A stretch of 64,000 nucleotides of DNA from an archaeon (lineage in GTDB: Archaea; Nanobdellota; Nanobdellia; Woesearchaeales; GW2011-AR15): positions 5,234 to 69,233 of the forward strand of contig JBDRQT010000041.1 in assembly GCA_043826135.1 (NCBI GenBank), written 5' to 3'. The notes below the pieces were generated by a model. That model was given only the letters and a program-made list of their open reading frames with translations. It did no database searches and was not told the DNA's origin. Positions 18,977 through 25,396 of the stretch are shown piece by piece; positions within the stretch are counted from its first letter, which is position 1, and each line of letters starts with the position of its first letter. The position numbers were made by a program, and so were the translations under genes.

Positions 18977-19561
18977 CTATTTTTTTTTTGAGACAAACAT
19001 AGTCCATATAAACACTACTGCAATAGCAAAAATGCTGCCAGCAAGAAACCATAATGCCACCTCTTGGTTTGCACTAACATCTGAAACAGCTGCCTGTGCT
19101 AGAGGAATTGCAGATTTTAGTGCCTGTCCAGACTCAAAAGTGTCTGCAAATACTGCTTGGTTTTGCAAAGGTTTCCAGAAAAGCTTTATTGATATGCTTC
19201 CTAGCACTGCAATAAATACAGCAGGCAGAAGCTCTTTTAATTTATCTATTAATAGATTCGAGTTTTTGGGGGCAATAATCACATATTTGTTTGATAGCGT
19301 ATAATGAACTACCTTTTTTCCCTTTTCTGAATATTTGAAGTTATCATCACTTAGAAGCCCTGCTTTGGTAAGAAGACTTAAATTATAATGTACTGTAGAT
19401 ATAGGAATCGAGAGCTCCTTAGATATATCTGTTTCAGTCATCAAATCCTTTTTTGAAAGCAATTCTAGAATTGTTCTAGACGTGTCGTTGCTGAGCACTT
19501 GTGCAAGTTTTTTGGATTTTTCCTCATCAAGGCTCACCAGCAAAAAAGATTCTTCTCCCAT
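18977..19561 (-). CDS. ArsR-like wHTH regulator with two C-terminal TM helices
   Basis: KKLAQVLSNDTSRTILELL...TETDISKELSIPISTVHYNL..L.KAGL plus two hydrophobic segments. Confidence 0.85.
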   Translation of the reverse strand: MGEESFLLVSLDEEKSKKLAQVLSNDTSRTILELLSKKDLMTETDISKELSIPISTVHYNLSLLTKAGLLSDDNFKYSEKGKKVVHYTLSNKYVIIAPKNSNLLIDKLKELLPAVFIAVLGSISIKLFWKPLQNQAVFADTFESGQALKSAIPLAQAAVSDVSANQEVALWFLAGSIFAIAVVFIWTMFVSKKK

Positions 19562-19623
19562 CCTTTATGGTTAACCAAGGATATATTTAAATAATTGGAT
19601 AGCTTCAGTTTCAGTTGAAGCCT

Positions 19624-19908
19624 ATGAAAAGCGAGGATATCAAACATATGAAAGCTGACGAACTCAGGTTCAGGATTGATCAGCTCAGGAAAGATAAGAT
19701 GATCTATGCTCTTGAGTCGATAGCATTCACTTTTATTGCAGAACTCGGTTATTTCCTGATAGCTGTCATTACCTTGCAGCAATATTCCTTTTTGCTTGCA
19801 TTTCTTGCGCTGATACCTCCGACTGTCTATTTTTTATTCATGGTCGTTGGAAATTTCAGCCGGCTCAAAGAGATAAAGAAGCTTGAACTTGAACTTTACA
19901 AAAAATGA
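19624..19908 (+). CDS. Small two-TM membrane protein
   Basis: Two hydrophobic helices; TATA-like TTTAAATA ~30 nt upstream; ATGA overlap with the next gene. Confidence 0.7.
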   Translation: MKSEDIKHMKADELRFRIDQLRKDKMIYALESIAFTFIAELGYFLIAVITLQQYSFLLAFLALIPPTVYFLFMVVGNFSRLKEIKKLELELYKK

Positions 19909-20246
19909 CTTCCTTCGGAAAGCTGCGCAGATTTTTGATAAAGATAAAATTATATATTGCACGGACAGGAAGTTATATCAGCCTCATTAATACTGTCCTG
20001 ATACTTTTTCTTTTCCTGTCTGACTTGAAGAAATACGGCATATACATTGCAATCAAGGACTGGATAGTTCCTCTATTCATCATGGGTGTCCTAATGATGG
20101 TCCTGTTTGGTTATATTGAGGAGAAGCTTGGATTCTACAGCGAAGAGCAAAGGTCAGCAAGCTCAAGGAATCCCTACATGAAAGATATCATTGAGAGATT
20201 GGACAGGATAGAAAAGAAATTGTATTTTTATAAAAAAAAGATATAG
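19905..20246 (+). CDS. Small two-TM membrane protein with C-terminal coiled coil
   Basis: Two TMs then EEQ..RNPYMKDIIERLDRIEKK. Confidence 0.7.
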   Translation: MTSFGKLRRFLIKIKLYIARTGSYISLINTVLILFLFLSDLKKYGIYIAIKDWIVPLFIMGVLMMVLFGYIEEKLGFYSEEQRSASSRNPYMKDIIERLDRIEKKLYFYKKKI

Positions 20247-20249
20247 TAT

Positions 20250-21401
20250 TCACTTCAATGCTTTTTCAAGGAAAGCCTTAACTTCTGATGAATTTTTTCT
20301 GGCAAATAAATCTCTCTTATATGTTTGTGCCGCCTCAACAGCTTTGGCAATAATTGTTTTTGCATTATTATCCCAGTATTCCCTCACCTGCATCTTAATA
20401 TCTTCCATAAGAATGTTCCAATAGCTTTTTTGTTTCAGAGTCTCAAACAGAAGCCTCTCTACTTCTCGGTCAACCTGCAAAAAAAGCTCTCTTCGATGAT
20501 CCTCATCCATTTGCAAAATCCGATCCCAGGAGGATTCGATAAGCAAATCTGCAAGTACTTTGGGATATATATCTCTAATTATCTCCATTATTGAATTATG
20601 AATCAATCCAATTTGATTTCTGCTTTGTGCCCTATCCATTGAAGTATTTCCTGGATCTCCTTTAGCGAAATATGCCCTAATGTTTTTTTCAATTTCTTCA
20701 CTTTCTTCTTCCAGTATCACTTCTTTTCTTTTTAAGATATTCAGTTCCGCAATAATAGACTGAATATCACCTGGCTGAATGGAATTTCTTGAAAAATTAA
20801 TACTCCAAATTTTATGTGCAAGTGCATTGATCCTTGAAGACCTTTTTGCAAGCATATAGACTTTTGACAATTCTTCCTTTATCTCAAAAATTGATCTGAA
20901 TATCGCACGGCCCTGCAATAATTTTTCGTCCCTGAAAAGAAGAGTGTTTGGATCATTGTCCATGGACATAAATACAGCTTCAAAATGATGCCTTGTCAAA
21001 CCTCCACCTTGATTTGGATTCTTATTAAGTTCCTTTAGTGCTTCATAAAGATAATATTCTAGATCAGAAAACGCTGAATCTGAAAGTTTCCATGCATTCT
21101 TTAAGTGATTCAATTGTGCATCCAGAAATTTCTCAATTTTTGTTAATATGTCATATATTTCCTTAAAATGAGCACTGACCTCTTTTTCCAGTTTGTTGCT
21201 TGAGTCTCCTTGTGAAACAGATGCCTGGACTAATTCCAGCAATTTTTCAAAATAATTGCTTAGCCTATTTATCTGCTGCTGAATTGATTGCTCATCAATT
21301 AGGGCATTTTGCACTATCAATTCCTCTTTTATAAGCTCTTCTTTCAGAACTCTAAATTCAGTCAAAAGGTCTCTTTTCTTGCGAAATTTACCCCAATTCA
21401 C
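20250..21401 (-). CDS. Helical/coiled-coil hypothetical protein
   Basis: 383-aa ORF with no recognisable motif. Confidence 0.7.
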   Translation of the reverse strand: MNWGKFRKKRDLLTEFRVLKEELIKEELIVQNALIDEQSIQQQINRLSNYFEKLLELVQASVSQGDSSNKLEKEVSAHFKEIYDILTKIEKFLDAQLNHLKNAWKLSDSAFSDLEYYLYEALKELNKNPNQGGGLTRHHFEAVFMSMDNDPNTLLFRDEKLLQGRAIFRSIFEIKEELSKVYMLAKRSSRINALAHKIWSINFSRNSIQPGDIQSIIAELNILKRKEVILEEESEEIEKNIRAYFAKGDPGNTSMDRAQSRNQIGLIHNSIMEIIRDIYPKVLADLLIESSWDRILQMDEDHRRELFLQVDREVERLLFETLKQKSYWNILMEDIKMQVREYWDNNAKTIIAKAVEAAQTYKRDLFARKNSSEVKAFLEKALK

Positions 21402-21476
21402 ATATTTTACATTTCATTCATTTTTATTAAATGTTGTTAAATATATTTTTAAAGAAGCAACTTCTACTATATACTT

Positions 21477-21793
21477 GTAGGGCAGTGCAAGACTAACGGA
21501 ATATCAGAATTCATTTCTGATAAACTGAGGAAAGTCCACCCACTTTCGTAACCACTGATGAAAGTCAGTTCCTGAAAAGGAAGGCAACCACTCAGAAACG
21601 AGACCACCTTATGATTATGGAATGATGCTAGTGAAGGTCTTGGTGACAAGACTAAGCTAACCTGCAGACGTCTCATAAGGAACGGATGAAACGGTGAGCC
21701 CTGGTTTGTGCAACTCCTTTGAGAGGCTAAGTTGAATGTCTTGAACGGCTTCCAAACATGGGCCGTACAAAAGGTGGCTTATAACTGCTCTAC
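21477..21793 (+). ncRNA. rnpB: RNase P RNA (archaeal, type A-like)
   Basis: P1 GTAGGGCAGT/ACTGCTCTAC; P2 CAAGAC/GTCTTG; CR-I GAGGAAAGTCC; P8 and P9 GAAA hairpins; CAGAAAC; P12 CCTTATGA/TCATAAGG; TGAAACGG; GCAA; CR-V ACAAAAGGTGGCTTAT. Confidence 0.95.
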
Positions 21794-21796
21794 TTT
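21745..21796 (+). repeat. Direct repeat copy 1 (3' end of rnpB)
   Basis: ACGGCTTCCAAACATGGGCCGTACAAAAGGTGGCTTATAACTGCTCTACTTT. Confidence 0.9.
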
Positions 21797-21994
21797 ATTT
21801 CAAATTTTTCTATTATTATATATTTACATAACAACCTGAGCGCATATTTTTTACTCACCGACAGGAATTTGGTCTCATAACTTACTCACATCAATTTGTA
21901 ATAACTTAAAAGTAGTAATTTTAAATAGATTTAAGTATAAGTTGTCACCTACTAAATCTAAAATAAAATTGATGCAAGTTTAAGGTGAAACAAT

Positions 21995-22726
21995 TTGGCT
22001 GGGCTTAGTGATGTTGTTAAAGATTTAGAAAAGAGATTTAAAAAGGTAGATTTAATGCAATGCAATGGGCTTGAAAGTGAAATTGGAATATTCACTGCAA
22101 CAAAGTCTGTAATCCTTGCTGATACTTTAACGGCATTCTCTGAATTTTTAGACATATATGAAAGATATAAAAATATATCTAAGGACAAATTATCCCAACG
22201 GGTCACATTATATTATCTCTCTCTTGTGGACTTAGCACATAATAGTCATGGCACACCTGATGAGATGAGTGCTATTGAACCGCAACTAAAACAAATAACT
22301 GCATACATCAATGGATTAACAAAAGAAATAAAAACCATATGTGATGAATATCCTGCGTTAAAAAGAAATGCAAAAAGGCCAGAAACCAGATTTATATCCC
22401 TCTTATATGAATATATATTGAACAATGGTAATGGAATGAGTAGATTGGATATGCCAAAAAATTATCCCAACCATAATCCACGTGAGTTCAGGGCTACTCT
22501 TTCCGGAAATGGATTAAAGGAAGTATGGATTTCAGCATACGAATGTCAGATACATCCAGGATATACTGTCTCTATTATACCGGCTCGCGCAAGCGAGCGT
22601 GAAAGAATTACATTTAGTTGTACAGAAGAGGAGGTAATAATTACCTCGATTGGAAGATTGAGTGCTAGGTCAGATCAACAGATTTTAAATATACTCCCGA
22701 TACTCAATAAAACTCTGTATAAATAA
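21995..22726 (+). CDS. Orphan hypothetical protein inside the rnpB-repeat-flanked islet
   Basis: 243-aa ORF with a TTG start after SD-like AAGGTGA; visibly AT-rich. Confidence 0.7.
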   Translation: MAGLSDVVKDLEKRFKKVDLMQCNGLESEIGIFTATKSVILADTLTAFSEFLDIYERYKNISKDKLSQRVTLYYLSLVDLAHNSHGTPDEMSAIEPQLKQITAYINGLTKEIKTICDEYPALKRNAKRPETRFISLLYEYILNNGNGMSRLDMPKNYPNHNPREFRATLSGNGLKEVWISAYECQIHPGYTVSIIPARASERERITFSCTEEEVIITSIGRLSARSDQQILNILPILNKTLYK

Positions 22727-22799
22727 AAAATAATTCTACACTGAATTAATCTATTCAAGAATCAATAAGGAATTGTTTTTTACCAAGCAGTTATTATAT

Positions 22800-22851
22800 A
22801 CGGCTTCCAAATATGGACCGTACAAAAGGTGGCTTATAACTACTATACTTT
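22800..22851 (+). repeat. Direct repeat copy 2: displaced rnpB 3' fragment (att-like)
   Basis: ACGGCTTCCAAATATGGACCGTACAAAAGGTGGCTTATAACTACTATACTTT; 48/52 identical to copy 1. Confidence 0.9.
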
Positions 22852-22907
22852 TTTAACTATTATTAAGTAGTAAAATTTATATATAAGGTTTTCCTTTGCT
22901 AAAAAAA

Positions 22908-23516
22908 ATGCCACTTAAAACAACACAAGGACTAATGCAAGCCTTAAAGAATGCGCAGGCATTGAGTAGACTTGTAGTAAAAGAATTGCGAGATAGTGAG
23001 AATATAGGCGAAGTGATCTTAACACCTAAAACCATCGAAATAAAAGAACATAAACACCAAGGAAGAACAAAAAGAGAAGTAGTAACTGGACATGTAGTCA
23101 GCAATAGTTTTTGGTTTGGTGAACAGCATAATCCTGTTGTCTCATATGTTTACGATGAATATAACTATTCTGAATTCAATTCTAGACAGGTTTTGAAAGT
23201 TGAACGCCTAAACCCAATGTTCAGAAAAAAAGTATACCTGCCAGCTTCGATAACTGTTGACGTAAAATCAGATCACCTTGTTTGGCTGCTTAAGTATGAA
23301 GGCAATGTGCCGAGCAGTTTAATGCATATGAATCAGCATACTGGGGCAAGAAGACCTTTATATGAAACTTCAATGGGCGCATTCATATATTATGATGGAA
23401 GAATAAAAGGTGCGGAAGGAATGTGCGCCTTTCGCCTAGATCCAAAAATAGATACACTTGAAAAAGTTGTTCAGTCGCTCCACCTCCATGGACCAATCGC
23501 ATATCTTGAGAGATGA
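22908..23516 (+). CDS. Orphan hypothetical protein
   Basis: ~202-aa ORF; TTTATATA box ~30 nt upstream of ATG 22908. Confidence 0.7.
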   Translation: MPLKTTQGLMQALKNAQALSRLVVKELRDSENIGEVILTPKTIEIKEHKHQGRTKREVVTGHVVSNSFWFGEQHNPVVSYVYDEYNYSEFNSRQVLKVERLNPMFRKKVYLPASITVDVKSDHLVWLLKYEGNVPSSLMHMNQHTGARRPLYETSMGAFIYYDGRIKGAEGMCAFRLDPKIDTLEKVVQSLHLHGPIAYLER

Positions 23517-23582
23517 ATATGACCGGATTTGCCAGACATGTATCATATATTTGTAGAATAGTTTAGAAACTACATATTTTTA

Positions 23583-23981
23583 TTACACTAAAGGTACGTT
23601 CTCGGCAATACTCTTTATCCCTGTTTTCAGGCTTGCAGGATCAGAATACTTATTATGCGTATAGGGCACAAGCGACCATTGCAGATTAACTTCTGGATTC
23701 GAGAATATTGTTTTTAGCTTAGGATTAACGATGAATTTCTGCCAATTTTGAAGCATGAACTCAAGGTTCTTTTTTGAGTTGAGACATATGAGCACTATCT
23801 GTCCTTCTTTAATCTTGTCATATACTGACTCGTCCAATATTTCACATATGATATAGACAACGTTTCCCTTATCTTTATACTCGCAGACTATGGATGATTC
23901 CATTACGTGTTTTGAGATTAAATCTCTTTTGAAGCTATTAAGATAGTCAATATATGAAGAAGCCCATTCTATAAGTTTCAT
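23583..23981 (-). CDS. Hypothetical protein (minD operon)
   Basis: 132-aa ORF abutting the upstream gene (1-nt gap). Confidence 0.75.
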   Translation of the reverse strand: MKLIEWASSYIDYLNSFKRDLISKHVMESSIVCEYKDKGNVVYIICEILDESVYDKIKEGQIVLICLNSKKNLEFMLQNWQKFIVNPKLKTIFSNPEVNLQWSLVPYTHNKYSDPASLKTGIKSIAENVPLV

Positions 23982-23982
23982 A

Positions 23983-24486
23983 TTAGATCTTTGTGAGTTT
24001 ATGCAGCATATGAGGGAGAGAGTAACTAAGAGTATAAAAAACTATTATTAACAAAGGATTTATTGTCACAAAAATGCCTATATCTTGAACGACACTTTTT
24101 GTAATATTCAACGTCAACATCAGCAGACCTAATGTTAGCAGAGGCAGAAAAAACAAAGCAAATGAATAGTGCCGATGGTCAATATCCATATGCCTTAGCA
24201 GGTAATCAGAAAATAATCCGAGACATATACCCATACACGAGATTACAAAGATCGACAAACTTGGCGCTCCGACAAAAACAGGTATTGCGGCCACAAATAT
24301 TATTGTGCTGCATACGGTAAAGAGAACTATGAAGAGAGTAAACATAGATTTGTCCAATTTCTTTATTTTGGGATGCTTAATTTTTTCTGCACCTTTCAGA
24401 ATATGCAATGTCCTGGCAATATATCTTTTCTCCCAACCTCTTTTTTCCAATTTTTTTGCTATCCTAGTGTGATTTGTCTCTATCAT
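23983..24486 (-). CDS. Four-TM membrane protein (minD operon)
   Basis: Basic N-terminus then four hydrophobic helices; ATGA overlap with minD. Confidence 0.75.
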   Translation of the reverse strand: MIETNHTRIAKKLEKRGWEKRYIARTLHILKGAEKIKHPKIKKLDKSMFTLFIVLFTVCSTIIFVAAIPVFVGAPSLSIFVISCMGICLGLFSDYLLRHMDIDHRHYSFALFFLPLLTLGLLMLTLNITKSVVQDIGIFVTINPLLIIVFYTLSYSLPHMLHKLTKI

Positions 24487-25259
24487 TTCATCCCCATCCT
24501 CTTCAGGAAAGTATCCATTGTTGAATCATCTTTTTCTTTGCCTTCGACATATTTTTCTCCGAGCAGACTTGCTGCAAGTTTTTTATATCCAATAGAACTT
24601 GGTGCATTTGGATGTGTATGAGTTACAGGATTCTTCATCCTAACTGATTCCCGCATTGTCTCATCTTCAGGGATAATCCCTATAACTGGTGTTTCAAGCA
24701 TCGCTTCAACATCCTCTTTTGACAGCTCCAGTTCATCTTCATATGCTCTTGTCAGAATTATGCCAGAGACTTTTTTTCCATATCTTTGTGCTATCTTTAT
24801 TGTCCTTAGGGCATCGCTCACAGCCGGAAGTTCTGGAGTTGAAACAACAAGTATCTCATCTCCCATCCTCAGCGTCGAGATGACTTCATTAGAAAGTCCT
24901 GCAGCACTGTCGATGATGACATAGTCTGCTTTTCCAGAAAGGCTTTTTATGAGCCTGTTTAGCTGCTCGTAATCTATCTGTGTCTGATCTTTGATTGACT
25001 GGCTCGCAGGTATTATTTTTAGTCCATGTTCATGCATGTACAATGCTTCTGTAATATTTTTGCCATTTTTCAGGACATCATGAAGTGAAATTGGAACATT
25101 AGGCGCTCCGAGATACAAAGAAACATTAGGTGTGCTTAGATTGCAGTCCACAACAATGACATCTCTCCCAAATACAGTCAGAGCAGTGCCTAAATTGATG
25201 GCAGTAGTAGTCTTTCCAACACCTCCTTTGCTAGAAGCAATTACGATGAACTTGGTCAT
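24483..25259 (-). CDS. minD: Archaeal MinD-type ATPase
   Basis: SSKGGVGKTT, VDCNLSTPN, IIDSAAGL, PELPAVSDA, IPED; C-terminal amphipathic MDTFLKRMGMK. Confidence 0.92.
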   Translation of the reverse strand: MTKFIVIASSKGGVGKTTTAINLGTALTVFGRDVIVVDCNLSTPNVSLYLGAPNVPISLHDVLKNGKNITEALYMHEHGLKIIPASQSIKDQTQIDYEQLNRLIKSLSGKADYVIIDSAAGLSNEVISTLRMGDEILVVSTPELPAVSDALRTIKIAQRYGKKVSGIILTRAYEDELELSKEDVEAMLETPVIGIIPEDETMRESVRMKNPVTHTHPNAPSSIGYKKLAASLLGEKYVEGKEKDDSTMDTFLKRMGMK

Positions 25260-25270
25260 TTTATTGTTTT

Positions 25271-25396
25271 TGTGGGTTTAGTACCCCACAGCTCTGCCGT
25301 GAAAAAATAATATTTGAAAATGTCGGTGCGCAGCAAAAAATTCGCAAATACCCCCTCAGCCCTGCTGTGGGTATTGTGAATTTTTAGACATTTTCA
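25271..25396. repeat. Nested inverted repeats / long imperfect hairpin upstream of minD
   Basis: TGAAAATGTC/GACATTTTCA enclosing AAAAATTCGC-A-AATACCC..CAGC-CCT-GCTG..GGGTATT-GTGAATTTTT; a second degenerate TACCCCACAGCTCTGCCGTG copy lies at 25282. Confidence 0.7.

Follow-up and report, generated by a model that had tools for sequence, protein, structure and literature searches.

In a groundwater Woesearchaeota (DPANN) genome, the gene of the archaeal RNase P RNA (rnpB) bears a scar of the kind that mobile DNA normally leaves at tRNA genes. The last 49 nt of rnpB, together with the TTT that follows (21745-21796; positions refer to the 64,000-nt stretch of DNA analyzed here, hereafter the window), recur on the same strand at 22800-22851 with 48 of 52 positions identical. 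We propose that this repeat pair is, on balance, probably the relic of a Campbell-type integration into the 3′ end of rnpB, whose recombinase would have been lost or would have acted in trans. The features of the locus are collected in Table 1.

Table 1. Features at and around rnpB (positions in the window)
Feature	Position	Strand	Remarks
Conserved 113-aa gene, left edge of conserved synteny	19905..20246	+	tblastn
ORF383, genome-specific orphan separating the 113-aa gene from the rnpB promoter	20250..21401	-	
rnpB, archaeal RNase P RNA, complete	21477..21793	+	RF00373, 141.7 bits, model positions 1-288 of 288
Repeat copy 1, attL-like, functional rnpB 3′ end	21745..21796	+	
ORF243, orphan cargo between the repeats, 243 aa	21995..22726	+	
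Repeat copy 2, attR-like, displaced decaying rnpB 3′ fragment	22800..22851	+	four G/C to A/T changes
ORF206, second orphan, 202 aa from ATG	22908..23516 (open frame 22896/22908-23516)	+	
Possible third, heavily decayed rnpB 3′ copy	23523..23585	+	local alignment, not significant alone
Conserved 132-aa gene, right edge of conserved synteny	23583..23981	-	

The duplicated 3′ end of rnpB

A cmscan search gave a single full-length RNaseP_arch match at rnpB, whose score lies well above the gathering score of 84 (E 8.1e-40), and the P1 pairs of this RNA are closed by copy 1; copy 2 by itself is no gene. Copy 1 consists of a species-specific hairpin, the 3′ strand of CR-V/P4, the 3′ strand of P1 and the TTT, so that the block opens within rnpB at the base of the hairpin and closes 3 nt beyond the Rfam 3′ end. 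Its left edge is abrupt: the sequences upstream of 21745/22800 show no similarity. The repeat search paired 21745-21831 with 22800-22886 (start-to-start spacing 1055), but past nt 52 the identity drops to about 19 of 35 positions, in AT-rich DNA, and the similarity there is unconvincing. The extent of the block is the stretch needed for rebuilding rnpB. The repetition described in the initial annotation was borne out on recounting, as was the presence of the CR-V/P4 strand within it, the 17-nt CR-V motif being identical in copy 2. When the 52-mer was compared by blastn with the whole genome (69 contigs, 1.88 Mb), the second copy was returned with E 1.7e-14 and no third one was found, i.e., the two copies at rnpB are the only ones. 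Matches to the 49-mer at ≤3 mismatches were observed in none of 100 dinucleotide shuffles of the window.

The two copies differ in one direction, all four differences being G/C in copy 1 and A/T in copy 2. Two of them lie in the alignable P1 strand, where five congeners carry the copy-1 base at both positions, and therefore copy 2 is derived there; the remaining two sit in the species-specific hairpin, where the relatives provide no means of polarising them. The G to A change at 22842 turns a C-G pair of P1 into C·A according to the Rfam structure line, and the C to A change at 22845 affects a position that is unpaired in Rfam, though its pairing with G4 is possible. Since one or two of the changes break P1 pairs and the bases are derived, copy 2 is a displaced fragment in decay, and the earlier claim that copy 1 alone keeps the P1 pairing was essentially right. 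The hairpin that opens the block folds in both copies alike. Its sequence is unrelated in the five congeners, yet it is present in copy 2, which indicates a duplication within this lineage, with its own rnpB as the source.

The intact CR-V motif, the still folding hairpin and a T6 run that follows, 121 nt past the ORF243 stop, could be taken to mean that copy 2 has been retained for a function, serving ORF243 as a terminator or 3′ UTR or acting as an RNA mimic of the CR-V/P4 strand, and is no neutral scar. We consider this quite unlikely, because copy 2 has accumulated 4 changes in 52 positions, each of them toward A/T, with the loss of one or two P1 pairs, and because such a copy is kept in no relative (17 family loci, order scan). 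No RNA run was found to contain this stretch. Such a function would in any case concern the present use of copy 2, not its origin, and does not compete with an insertion; the T6 run (22849-22854) could now terminate the ORF243 transcript.

Because the genome was binned from a metagenome assembly (69 contigs), an assembly artefact or chimera had to be considered. Both copies are bridged by a 5879-nt Logan contig of run X1, which matches 19500-25296 without a single difference and at even depth. X1 may be the source sample, so that this contig counts as an independent assembly, not as independent DNA. An artefact is nevertheless most improbable: a second assembler produced the same arrangement, the copies differ at 4 positions and, at 52 nt, they are shorter than usual short sequencing reads. 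Moreover, the sole apparent artefact of this type among the relatives, in genome G210, looks quite different, with identical 55-mers flanking a run of N. The concern raised in the initial annotation that the repeat might be artefactual was thus largely allayed by the X1 contig. The contigs of three runs, which drop rare forms, contained no circle and no empty-site junction; those of X2 and X3 cover too little of the stretch to bear on the junctions.

Orphan genes and the rnpB locus in relatives

The 113-aa gene on the left has tblastn matches of 55-65% identity in eight relatives (G001-G005, G007, G009 and G012), and in congeners it ends about 30-100 nt upstream of rnpB. Here ORF383 intervenes; it has no flanking repeat, gave tblastn matches in none of 17 family loci, was found only as itself among 5.8 billion clustered proteins, and had no convincing match in Pfam, PHROG or PADLOC. 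ORF243, between the repeats, is preceded by an AGGTGA Shine-Dalgarno sequence at 21983-21988 and starts with TTG, and a hairpin and T-run are present downstream of its stop (22724-22782). Its codon score is best in its own frame, yet falls at the 4.6th percentile among the ORFs of the genome, so its codon use is atypical. Composition does not single out the islet, whose GC content is 30-35% (genome, 38%), and the native neighbours also score low on codons. ORF206 lies outside the repeat pair and inside DNA that is absent from G004 and G005. A TATA-like TTTATATATA occurs at 22876-22885, ~28 nt upstream of its ATG, and a 276-nt contig of run X2, a second groundwater sample from another study, matches 22952-23227 with 1 difference.

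Both ORFs had been noticed before, as an AT-rich orphan between the copies and a second orphan after copy 2; both are present and without relatives. Neither belongs to a Pfam family, and for this cargo nothing usable was obtained from Pfam, PHROGs, PADLOC, the word-indexed search of 5.8 billion proteins, the ESM Atlas or a full phmmer scan. A phmmer match of ORF243 to P0003, a 1554-aa immunoglobulin-repeat protein (E 7.6e-29), was treated as repeat-driven score inflation, the same 39-aa stretch of ORF243 being aligned 14 times at ~30 bits each. ORF243 and ORF206 are missing from all 19 other family genomes. They have no similarity to each other, which rules out a tandem duplication of the whole 1055-nt unit.

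The congeners G004 and G005 show an empty site, in which only 0-10 nt separate rnpB from the homolog of the 132-aa gene. It follows that the gain in the present genome amounts to ~1.8 kb (21794-23582) and includes both orphans. The description as a one-gene islet therefore holds for the DNA between the repeats, which contains one ORF, but not for the gained DNA as a whole, of which ORF206 is also a part. The spacer from ORF206 to the stop of the 132-aa gene (23523-23585) is the expected place of the ancestral rnpB end, and a third repeat copy was considered there. The local score was 26 against copy 2 (attained by 51 of 2000 shuffles) and 17 against copy 1 (attained by 676 of 2000), and unrelated places in the window reach up to 36 in the same comparison; the position is suggestive, the alignment score is not significant, and the candidate was not retained.

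In keeping with the initial annotation, gene content downstream of rnpB differs across relatives: when the congeners, one of which is archaeon GW2011_AR15, were compared, four states were observed among six genomes. The pepF gene, for example, lies downstream of rnpB in G001 and G002 and on contig C43 in the present genome. A duplicate of the rnpB 3′ end was found in none of 17 family loci, in which 1.4-14 kb downstream were inspected (about 14 kb in 12 of them). An order-wide scan of 401 genomes returned 12 others with two motif matches, and none of the 10 that were inspected (G261 and G404 were left out) contained a genuine rnpB 3′ fragment. In G210 the second match came from an unmerged scaffold overlap, with the identical 55-mers on either side of the run of N; in G024 a second contig begins inside a 98%-identical rnpB (a strain variant); G081 has two complete rnpB genes; and the rest had 15-20-nt motif matches at the frequency seen in a reversed-pattern control. 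The proposal that rnpB is an attB or capture hotspot of the lineage was thus not sustained in these 17 loci and 10 genomes, and the rnpB islet is a single relic and no lineage habit.

A second islet at tRNA-Ala and the origin of the repeat pair

A second islet is present in the same genome at tRNA-Ala(CGC), of which the 3′ part, beginning directly past the anticodon, recurs 964 nt downstream. This repeat of ~100 nt (89 of 100 positions identical, the first 45 all identical) continues ~64 nt beyond the tRNA gene, and the cargo is one methyltransferase gene, with no integrase. The islet has the same build as the one at rnpB, with one gene each. A start right after the anticodon is a classical sublocation in tRNA genes. 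The tRNA-Ala locus has no synteny common to the congeners, so an empty site is not definable there. Other direct repeats spaced by ~1 kb (on contigs C35, C63, C39, C9 and C1) are coding or AT-rich and are not fragments of RNA genes, and contigs C9 and C32, which have identical ends, carry ISL3 transposase, surface or glycosyltransferase genes and are no clear plasmids or viruses.

The genome also contains a cassette array of one-gene units; it lies on contig C26 beside a XerA/IntI-like recombinase. An nhmmer profile built from the repeats of this array recovered 12 copies (C26, C38 and C11). In C41:25400-29300 it had no match, not even with the filters switched off and the threshold relaxed to E 10. 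Terminal inverted repeats were likewise absent from the rnpB islet, and a cassette-type insertion at rnpB was ruled out.

No integrase or integrase fragment was detected inside or beside the rnpB islet, in Pfam or among the profile matches of the genome; the integrase gene beside att that marks RNA-gene integrative elements is thus lacking. PF00589 has six matches in the genome, five of them above the curated cut-off, on contigs C20, C23, C26, C47 and C63 and none on C41, and these five tyrosine-recombinase loci could act in trans. A mobile copy was not found either: the 52-nt site and the ORF243 and ORF206 proteins have 0 matches in IMG/VR, site or cargo gave 0 matches in JGI metagenome contigs and in PLSDB, and neither occurs elsewhere in the present genome. 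The virus, plasmid and metagenome contigs searched therefore offer no mobile contig carrying the rnpB site or its cargo. A regenerated target followed by a displaced direct 3′ fragment (full RF00373 match, 48/52 repeat) was found here, i.e., the intact gene, cargo and 3′ fragment in direct orientation that had been read as the scar of an integrative element. The reading as an integrative element hence keeps its geometry, the empty site (in G004 and G005) and the variable downstream DNA, but loses the lineage hotspot, an integrase in the islet and a mobile contig.

We infer a circular intermediate, an enzyme and an order of events as follows. A small circular DNA would have borne an attP-like site, a duplicate of the final ~50 nt of the species' own rnpB. 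A crossover, probably in or close to the hairpin at the start of the block, would have joined it to the chromosomal rnpB at the 3′ end. The incoming copy would have completed the working rnpB, becoming copy 1, and the original 3′ end would have been displaced 1055 nt downstream, where it would have decayed since as copy 2; one orphan gene, ORF243, would be what remains of the cargo. The recombinase, most likely a tyrosine integrase, would have been deleted, or would never have been on the element and have acted in trans. ORF206, just past copy 2, may have been gained there earlier, possibly via the same route. Besides the missing integrase and mobile copy, two points count against a Campbell integration: an islet of 1 kb is far below any self-sufficient integrative element, and recurrence was not found in relatives (the 17 family loci and the 10 genomes of the order). 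Furthermore, ORF206 and ORF383 were gained beside rnpB without a clear repeat, so that orphan gain at this locus does not require such an integration.

The 52-nt homology could equally serve host homologous recombination, which would give an identical product. In this case, circular or circularised DNA of a sibling strain that carried the rnpB 3′ end would have entered by a single crossover in the ~50-nt homology, no site-specific recombinase would have been involved and rnpB would be no att site. Such a route is a realistic, though distinctly less probable, origin. It agrees with the lack of an integrase in the islet, with a tRNA-Ala repeat that exceeds a minimal att core in length and resembles captured host DNA more closely, and with the rearrangement downstream of rnpB among the congeners, e.g., of pepF. 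However, the block spans the hairpin base to the gene end, as in site-specific systems at RNA genes, the tRNA-Ala block begins right after the anticodon, reportedly a classical sublocation, and random homology is not expected to respect gene ends twice.

It is also conceivable that there was no Campbell insertion, and that the 52 nt were duplicated by staggered-break repair or by a replication template switch during the capture of foreign DNA downstream of 21744, with only the products that rebuilt rnpB surviving selection. Because rnpB is presumably essential, selection alone could explain the intact gene, and ORF383 and ORF206 entered beside it without repeats. Nonetheless, we regard this as unlikely, since a target duplication of 52 nt far exceeds known transposition or end-joining events, terminal inverted repeats are absent, and the tRNA-Ala case, with its start on the classical side of the anticodon, would be left unexplained.

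A bolder version of the Campbell integration, which we put forward as a speculation with a rather small chance of being correct, is that the rnpB 3′ end is a true landing site for integrase-less one-gene circles moved in trans by a chromosomal tyrosine recombinase. The site would have been hit repeatedly, first by ORF206, with the possible third copy at 23523-23585 as its remnant, and then by ORF243, and the tRNA-Ala islet would be a sister case. If so, a class of minimal gene cassettes that land on structural-RNA 3′ ends would exist in DPANN archaea, alongside the Xer-type cassette array of the same genome.

Comparison with known systems

Prokaryotic mobile DNA is found and delimited mainly by one rule, namely that it integrates at the 3′ ends of tRNA and tmRNA genes, and the tools built on this rule inspect only the RNA genes specified to them. 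The scar at the RNase P RNA gene of a DPANN archaeon suggests that a further essential structural RNA can fall under the same rule, and argues for rnpB on the target lists of island-finding tools. Together, the rnpB and tRNA-Ala islets provide two datable examples of the entry of orphan genes into small genomes. The value of the case is limited: the enzyme is missing from this one relic, and sequence cannot prove a mechanism. A full-text literature search found no report of rnpB as an integration or attachment site, in line with the earlier remark that no such description was known for archaea; supplementary tables and the TIGER/Islander database, which lie outside the scope of that search, could hold cases. 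One recent tool already scans RNase P models, and the available text of its description reports no rnpB case.

The parallel with Escherichia coli that the initial annotation had drawn is correct, in that tandem repeats of 113 nt take in the last ~41 nt of K-12 rnpB, and in both organisms the 3′ end of rnpB is part of a unit repeated downstream. In K-12, however, three to four such units lie head to tail with no gene between them, whereas here there are two copies, 1055 nt apart, with a 243-codon ORF between them, and a short-period head-to-tail array without an ORF is not what was observed. The Xer-type integron-like cassette arrays of Woesearchaeota resemble the rnpB islet in their one-gene units of ~0.6-1.3 kb. 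They differ in that their units are bounded by folded repeats of ~100 nt with a dif-like core, an element that the rnpB islet does not have, and in that cassette insertion produces no target duplication.

The CIMEs of Streptococcus are integrase-less elements flanked by att sites, which are mobilised in trans by related ICEs. They share with the rnpB islet the attL- and attR-like flanking repeats, the lack of a recombination module and a small size; a cognate integrase-bearing element that uses the rnpB site was not found in the genome or its relatives. A non-tRNA structural RNA gene as attachment site has a counterpart in prophage phiEf11, whose attB lies in ffs, the gene of the 4.5S RNA (Sci Rep 2025, PMC12540744). 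In the available text of that report, tRNA/tmRNA and csRNA are given as the known ncRNA targets and ffs is presented as new; the same text describes an intact bacterial phage with its integrase 74 nt from attP and a 27-nt core, and a confirmation by PCR, whereas the rnpB islet is a relic only.

From tRNA/tmRNA-type islands and proviruses (Islander/TIGER definition; archaeal SSV-type and pTN3-type) the present case differs in its target, rnpB, in having no integrase and no mobile copy, in its size of 1 kb with one orphan, and in its single occurrence. It has in common with them the intact RNA gene, the cargo and the displaced 3′ fragment in direct orientation, as well as a block of identity that starts within the gene and reaches its 3′ end and an empty site in relatives.

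The rnpB repeat and its empty site

The claim of the initial annotation that the 3′ end of rnpB is duplicated as a direct repeat was confirmed. The two 52-nt copies, on the same strand and with a spacing of 1055 nt, were identical at 48 positions, and the block consists of the last 49 nt of the gene plus the next three T's. A comparable match was found in none of 100 shuffles of the window. Only these two copies were present in the entire 1.88-Mb, 69-contig genome (copy 2, E 1.7e-14); there was no third one, and the best matches after copy 2 were chance matches of 12-16 nt. On the left the repeat has a sharp boundary, and on the right it grades into AT-rich DNA in which ~19 of 35 further positions match, which were not counted as repeat. 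An assembly artefact, which the initial annotation had raised, was addressed with a 5879-nt contig of the public sequencing run X1, built by a different assembler. It covers 19500-25296 with no differences and even depth, so that both copies are spanned; since X1 is perhaps the source sample of the genome, this excludes an assembler quirk but does not provide independent DNA.

Coordinates of the features discussed (window positions unless a contig or locus is named)
Feature	Position	Strand	Remarks
ORF383	20250-21401	-	orphan, 383 aa
rnpB	21477-21793	+	RF00373, 141.7 bits, full model; sole archaeal RNase P RNA gene in the window
Copy 1	21745-21796		within and just past rnpB
Gained segment	21794-23582		relative to the empty site
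ORF243	21995-22726	+	orphan; Shine-Dalgarno and TTG start
Copy 2	22800-22851
ORF206	22908-23516	+	orphan; TATA-like box ~28 nt 5′ of the ATG
132-aa gene	23583-23981	-	homolog starts 0-10 nt after rnpB in G004 and G005
167-aa gene	23983-24486	-	between the 132-aa gene and a ParA/MinD-like ATPase
tRNA-Ala islet	C7:35553-36652 (L124:4554-5653)		repeat pair around one gene
Integron-like array	C26:30158-40245 (L138:3158-13245)		at least 8 repeats of ~100 nt

Synteny with congeners (five were compared, G001-G005) holds on the left up to 20246 and on the right from 23583. In G005 the 132-aa gene, convergent with rnpB, has its stop codon within the last four bases of the latter (L036 6303-6306), and by their gene order G004 and G005 show the empty site downstream of rnpB. 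With this site as the reference, this genome has gained a segment with two orphans, ORF243 enclosed by the two copies and ORF206 past the second one. In G001 and G002 an M3-family oligoendopeptidase gene lies downstream of rnpB, accompanied by a response regulator in G002; the peptidase ortholog of the present genome is kept on another contig. G003 has different neighbours. Four states are thus seen among six genomes, which makes the downstream flank of rnpB a breakpoint. On the other side, between a conserved 113-aa gene and the rnpB promoter, lies the genome-specific ORF383, which has no flanking repeat. Its product has a coiled-coil look, 3 nt separate the gene from the stop codon of its convergent neighbour, and no relatives were found anywhere. 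Only some relatives have the 167-aa gene (27-44% identity), namely G005 and a number of family members; G001, G002 and G004 lack it.

By Rfam alignment the block comprises a hairpin, then the conserved CR-V/P4 3′ strand and then the 3′ strand of P1. Compared with the RF00373 consensus the hairpin is inserted, and all five congeners have unrelated sequence at that place. Copy 2 carries this genome's version, and therefore the duplication arose in this lineage, from its own rnpB. At all four differences copy 1 has G/C and copy 2 A/T. Two of them lie in the alignable P1 strand, where all five congeners have the copy-1 base at both; one changes a C-G pair to C.A in copy 2, and the other affects a base that is unpaired in Rfam and able to pair with G4. 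The hairpin folds in both copies alike. On this evidence copy 2 is a displaced fragment, drifting toward the AT bias of the genome, and copy 1 the working 3′ end.

Cargo genes

Codon scores were highest in the frame of the ORF itself for both genes, and ranked at the 4.6th percentile of the long ORFs of the genome for ORF243 and at the 13.9th for ORF206; two native neighbours scored equally low. Neither had a match in Pfam, PHROGs, PADLOC or IMG/VR, in any of 19 other family genomes, or above noise in the ESM Atlas, and only self-matches were found among 5.8 billion clustered proteins. A full phmmer search with ORF243 against 1.84 billion representatives gave one other match, an immunoglobulin-repeat protein in which the same 39 residues match 14 times; this was regarded as repeat inflation. 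ORF206 was matched, with one difference, by a 276-nt contig of another groundwater study, so that the organism or the ORF206 gene is present in a second sample.

A second islet and the proposed mechanism of insertion

When all 27 ARAGORN tRNA genes were compared with the genome, one clear displaced fragment was detected, that of tRNA-Ala(CGC) on contig C7. The repeat spans the last 36 nt of the gene, from just after the anticodon, plus ~64 nt downstream, and a second copy is located 964 nt on; the copies are identical at 89 of 100 positions, including the first 45. They enclose a single gene, for a 254-aa class I SAM methyltransferase with no ortholog in 20 relatives, and this islet, like the one at rnpB, has no integrase. 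Genome-wide self-comparison revealed no other RNA-gene fragment pairs. Since there are two ~1-kb one-gene islets, both delimited by the 3′ portion of a gene for a structural RNA, we argue for a shared process rather than two unrelated accidents.

The product observed at rnpB is the one expected when a circle recombines with the chromosome by a single crossover. The block runs from a stem-loop inside the gene to a little beyond its end, which is the extent needed to restore the gene. According to the Islander abstract, tyrosine integrases leave blocks of this extent at tRNA and tmRNA genes. On these grounds we favour site-specific integration at rnpB, the recombinase being either lost or provided in trans. 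Williams (2002) reportedly gave a sublocation rule for integrases at tRNA/tmRNA genes. Five tyrosine-recombinase loci were found in the genome, none of them on the contig of the window. An identical scar would result from homologous recombination across these 50-100 nt, a possible alternative toward which the long tRNA-Ala block leans. Tandem duplication was excluded because ORF243 and ORF206 are unrelated. Cassette insertion by the Xer-type system of the genome was unsupported: neither islet has the ~100-nt folded repeats of that system, terminal inverted repeats are lacking, and the target is not duplicated in insertions of this type.

ORF206 might record an earlier insertion of the same kind. 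The spacer that separates it from the 132-aa gene shows a weak alignment to the block over its whole length, exactly at the expected ancestral end of rnpB, and could be an old block remnant. This is a lead: of 2000 shuffles, 51 reached the score against copy 2 and 676 that against copy 1, and the spacer is outscored elsewhere in the window.

The repeats of the integron-like array on contig C26 have a dif-like palindrome and a long hairpin that covaries, and mostly single genes lie between them (radical SAM, Nudix, hypotheticals). Immediately downstream of the array lies the gene for a 286-aa recombinase, with a score of 215.7 bits against NCBIfam XerA/integron integrase (cut-off 220), and more copies of the repeat are located on C38 and C11. 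The centre of repeats R2, R4 and R5 is a 9-bp helix identical to the tRNA-Ala acceptor stem of this genome, including G3.U70, and a 10-nt stretch equals tRNA-Ala positions 4-13. Within L124:5500-5653, the 26 nt 3′ of tRNA-Ala match the repeat loop and 3′ strand at ~20 of 26 positions by eye, a similarity unreported by nhmmer. Elsewhere, two contigs have identical ends and may be either circular molecules or pieces bounded by repeats: C9 (12049 nt, ends of 141 nt), with large surface proteins and an ISL3 transposase, and C32 (10386 nt, ends of 80 nt), with surface and glycosyltransferase genes.

Distribution and known systems

The initial annotation had also proposed rnpB as an attB or hotspot of the lineage, and here the comparisons were negative. 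None of 17 family loci carried a partial rnpB copy (rnpB plus ~14 kb downstream in 12 and 1.4-11 kb in the other five, with ~5-6 kb upstream in all but two). Across the order, the conserved 17-nt CR-V motif, with at most one mismatch, was found in 179 of 401 genomes (ten unpublished ones are part of the counts), the reversed-pattern control giving about a dozen matches; this test detects only fragments that keep the motif, and only within the 178 other genomes having a match. Two matches occurred in 13 genomes including this one, and among the ten examined of the other 12 (G261, unpublished, and G404 were left out) there was no further genuine rnpB 3′ fragment. G081 has two complete rnpB genes; in G024 the second match is a strain variant, a contig whose start lies within an rnpB of 98% identity and whose similarity extends over 1.3 kb; and in G035, G046, G105, G107, G180, G217 and G328 the 15-20-nt motif alone was in common. 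In G210 identical 55-mers lie on both sides of a run of N, where a scaffold overlap was left unmerged (L087, G210:C13:19220-19322), so that this public MAG scaffold mimics a duplication at the rnpB 3′ end. Beyond the genome, no copy of the site-specific sequence was found in IMG/VR, JGI metagenome contigs or PLSDB. The integration reading is partly supported: a single, old, integrase-less integration scar at rnpB stands, and a lineage-wide attB does not.

This kind of scar is well known, and rnpB as its target is not. In the literature searched, rnpB appeared only as a marker or annotation item, although supplements and the TIGER/Islander database may hold cases. In a 2025 paper (PMC12540744), the ncRNA attachment sites listed are tRNA/tmRNA and csRNA, ffs is described as a new one, and the scanner includes RNase P models. 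The parallel with E. coli drawn in the initial annotation is real, in that 113-nt tandem units overlap the last ~41 nt of rnpB there, but these units have no gene between them, unlike the islet described here.
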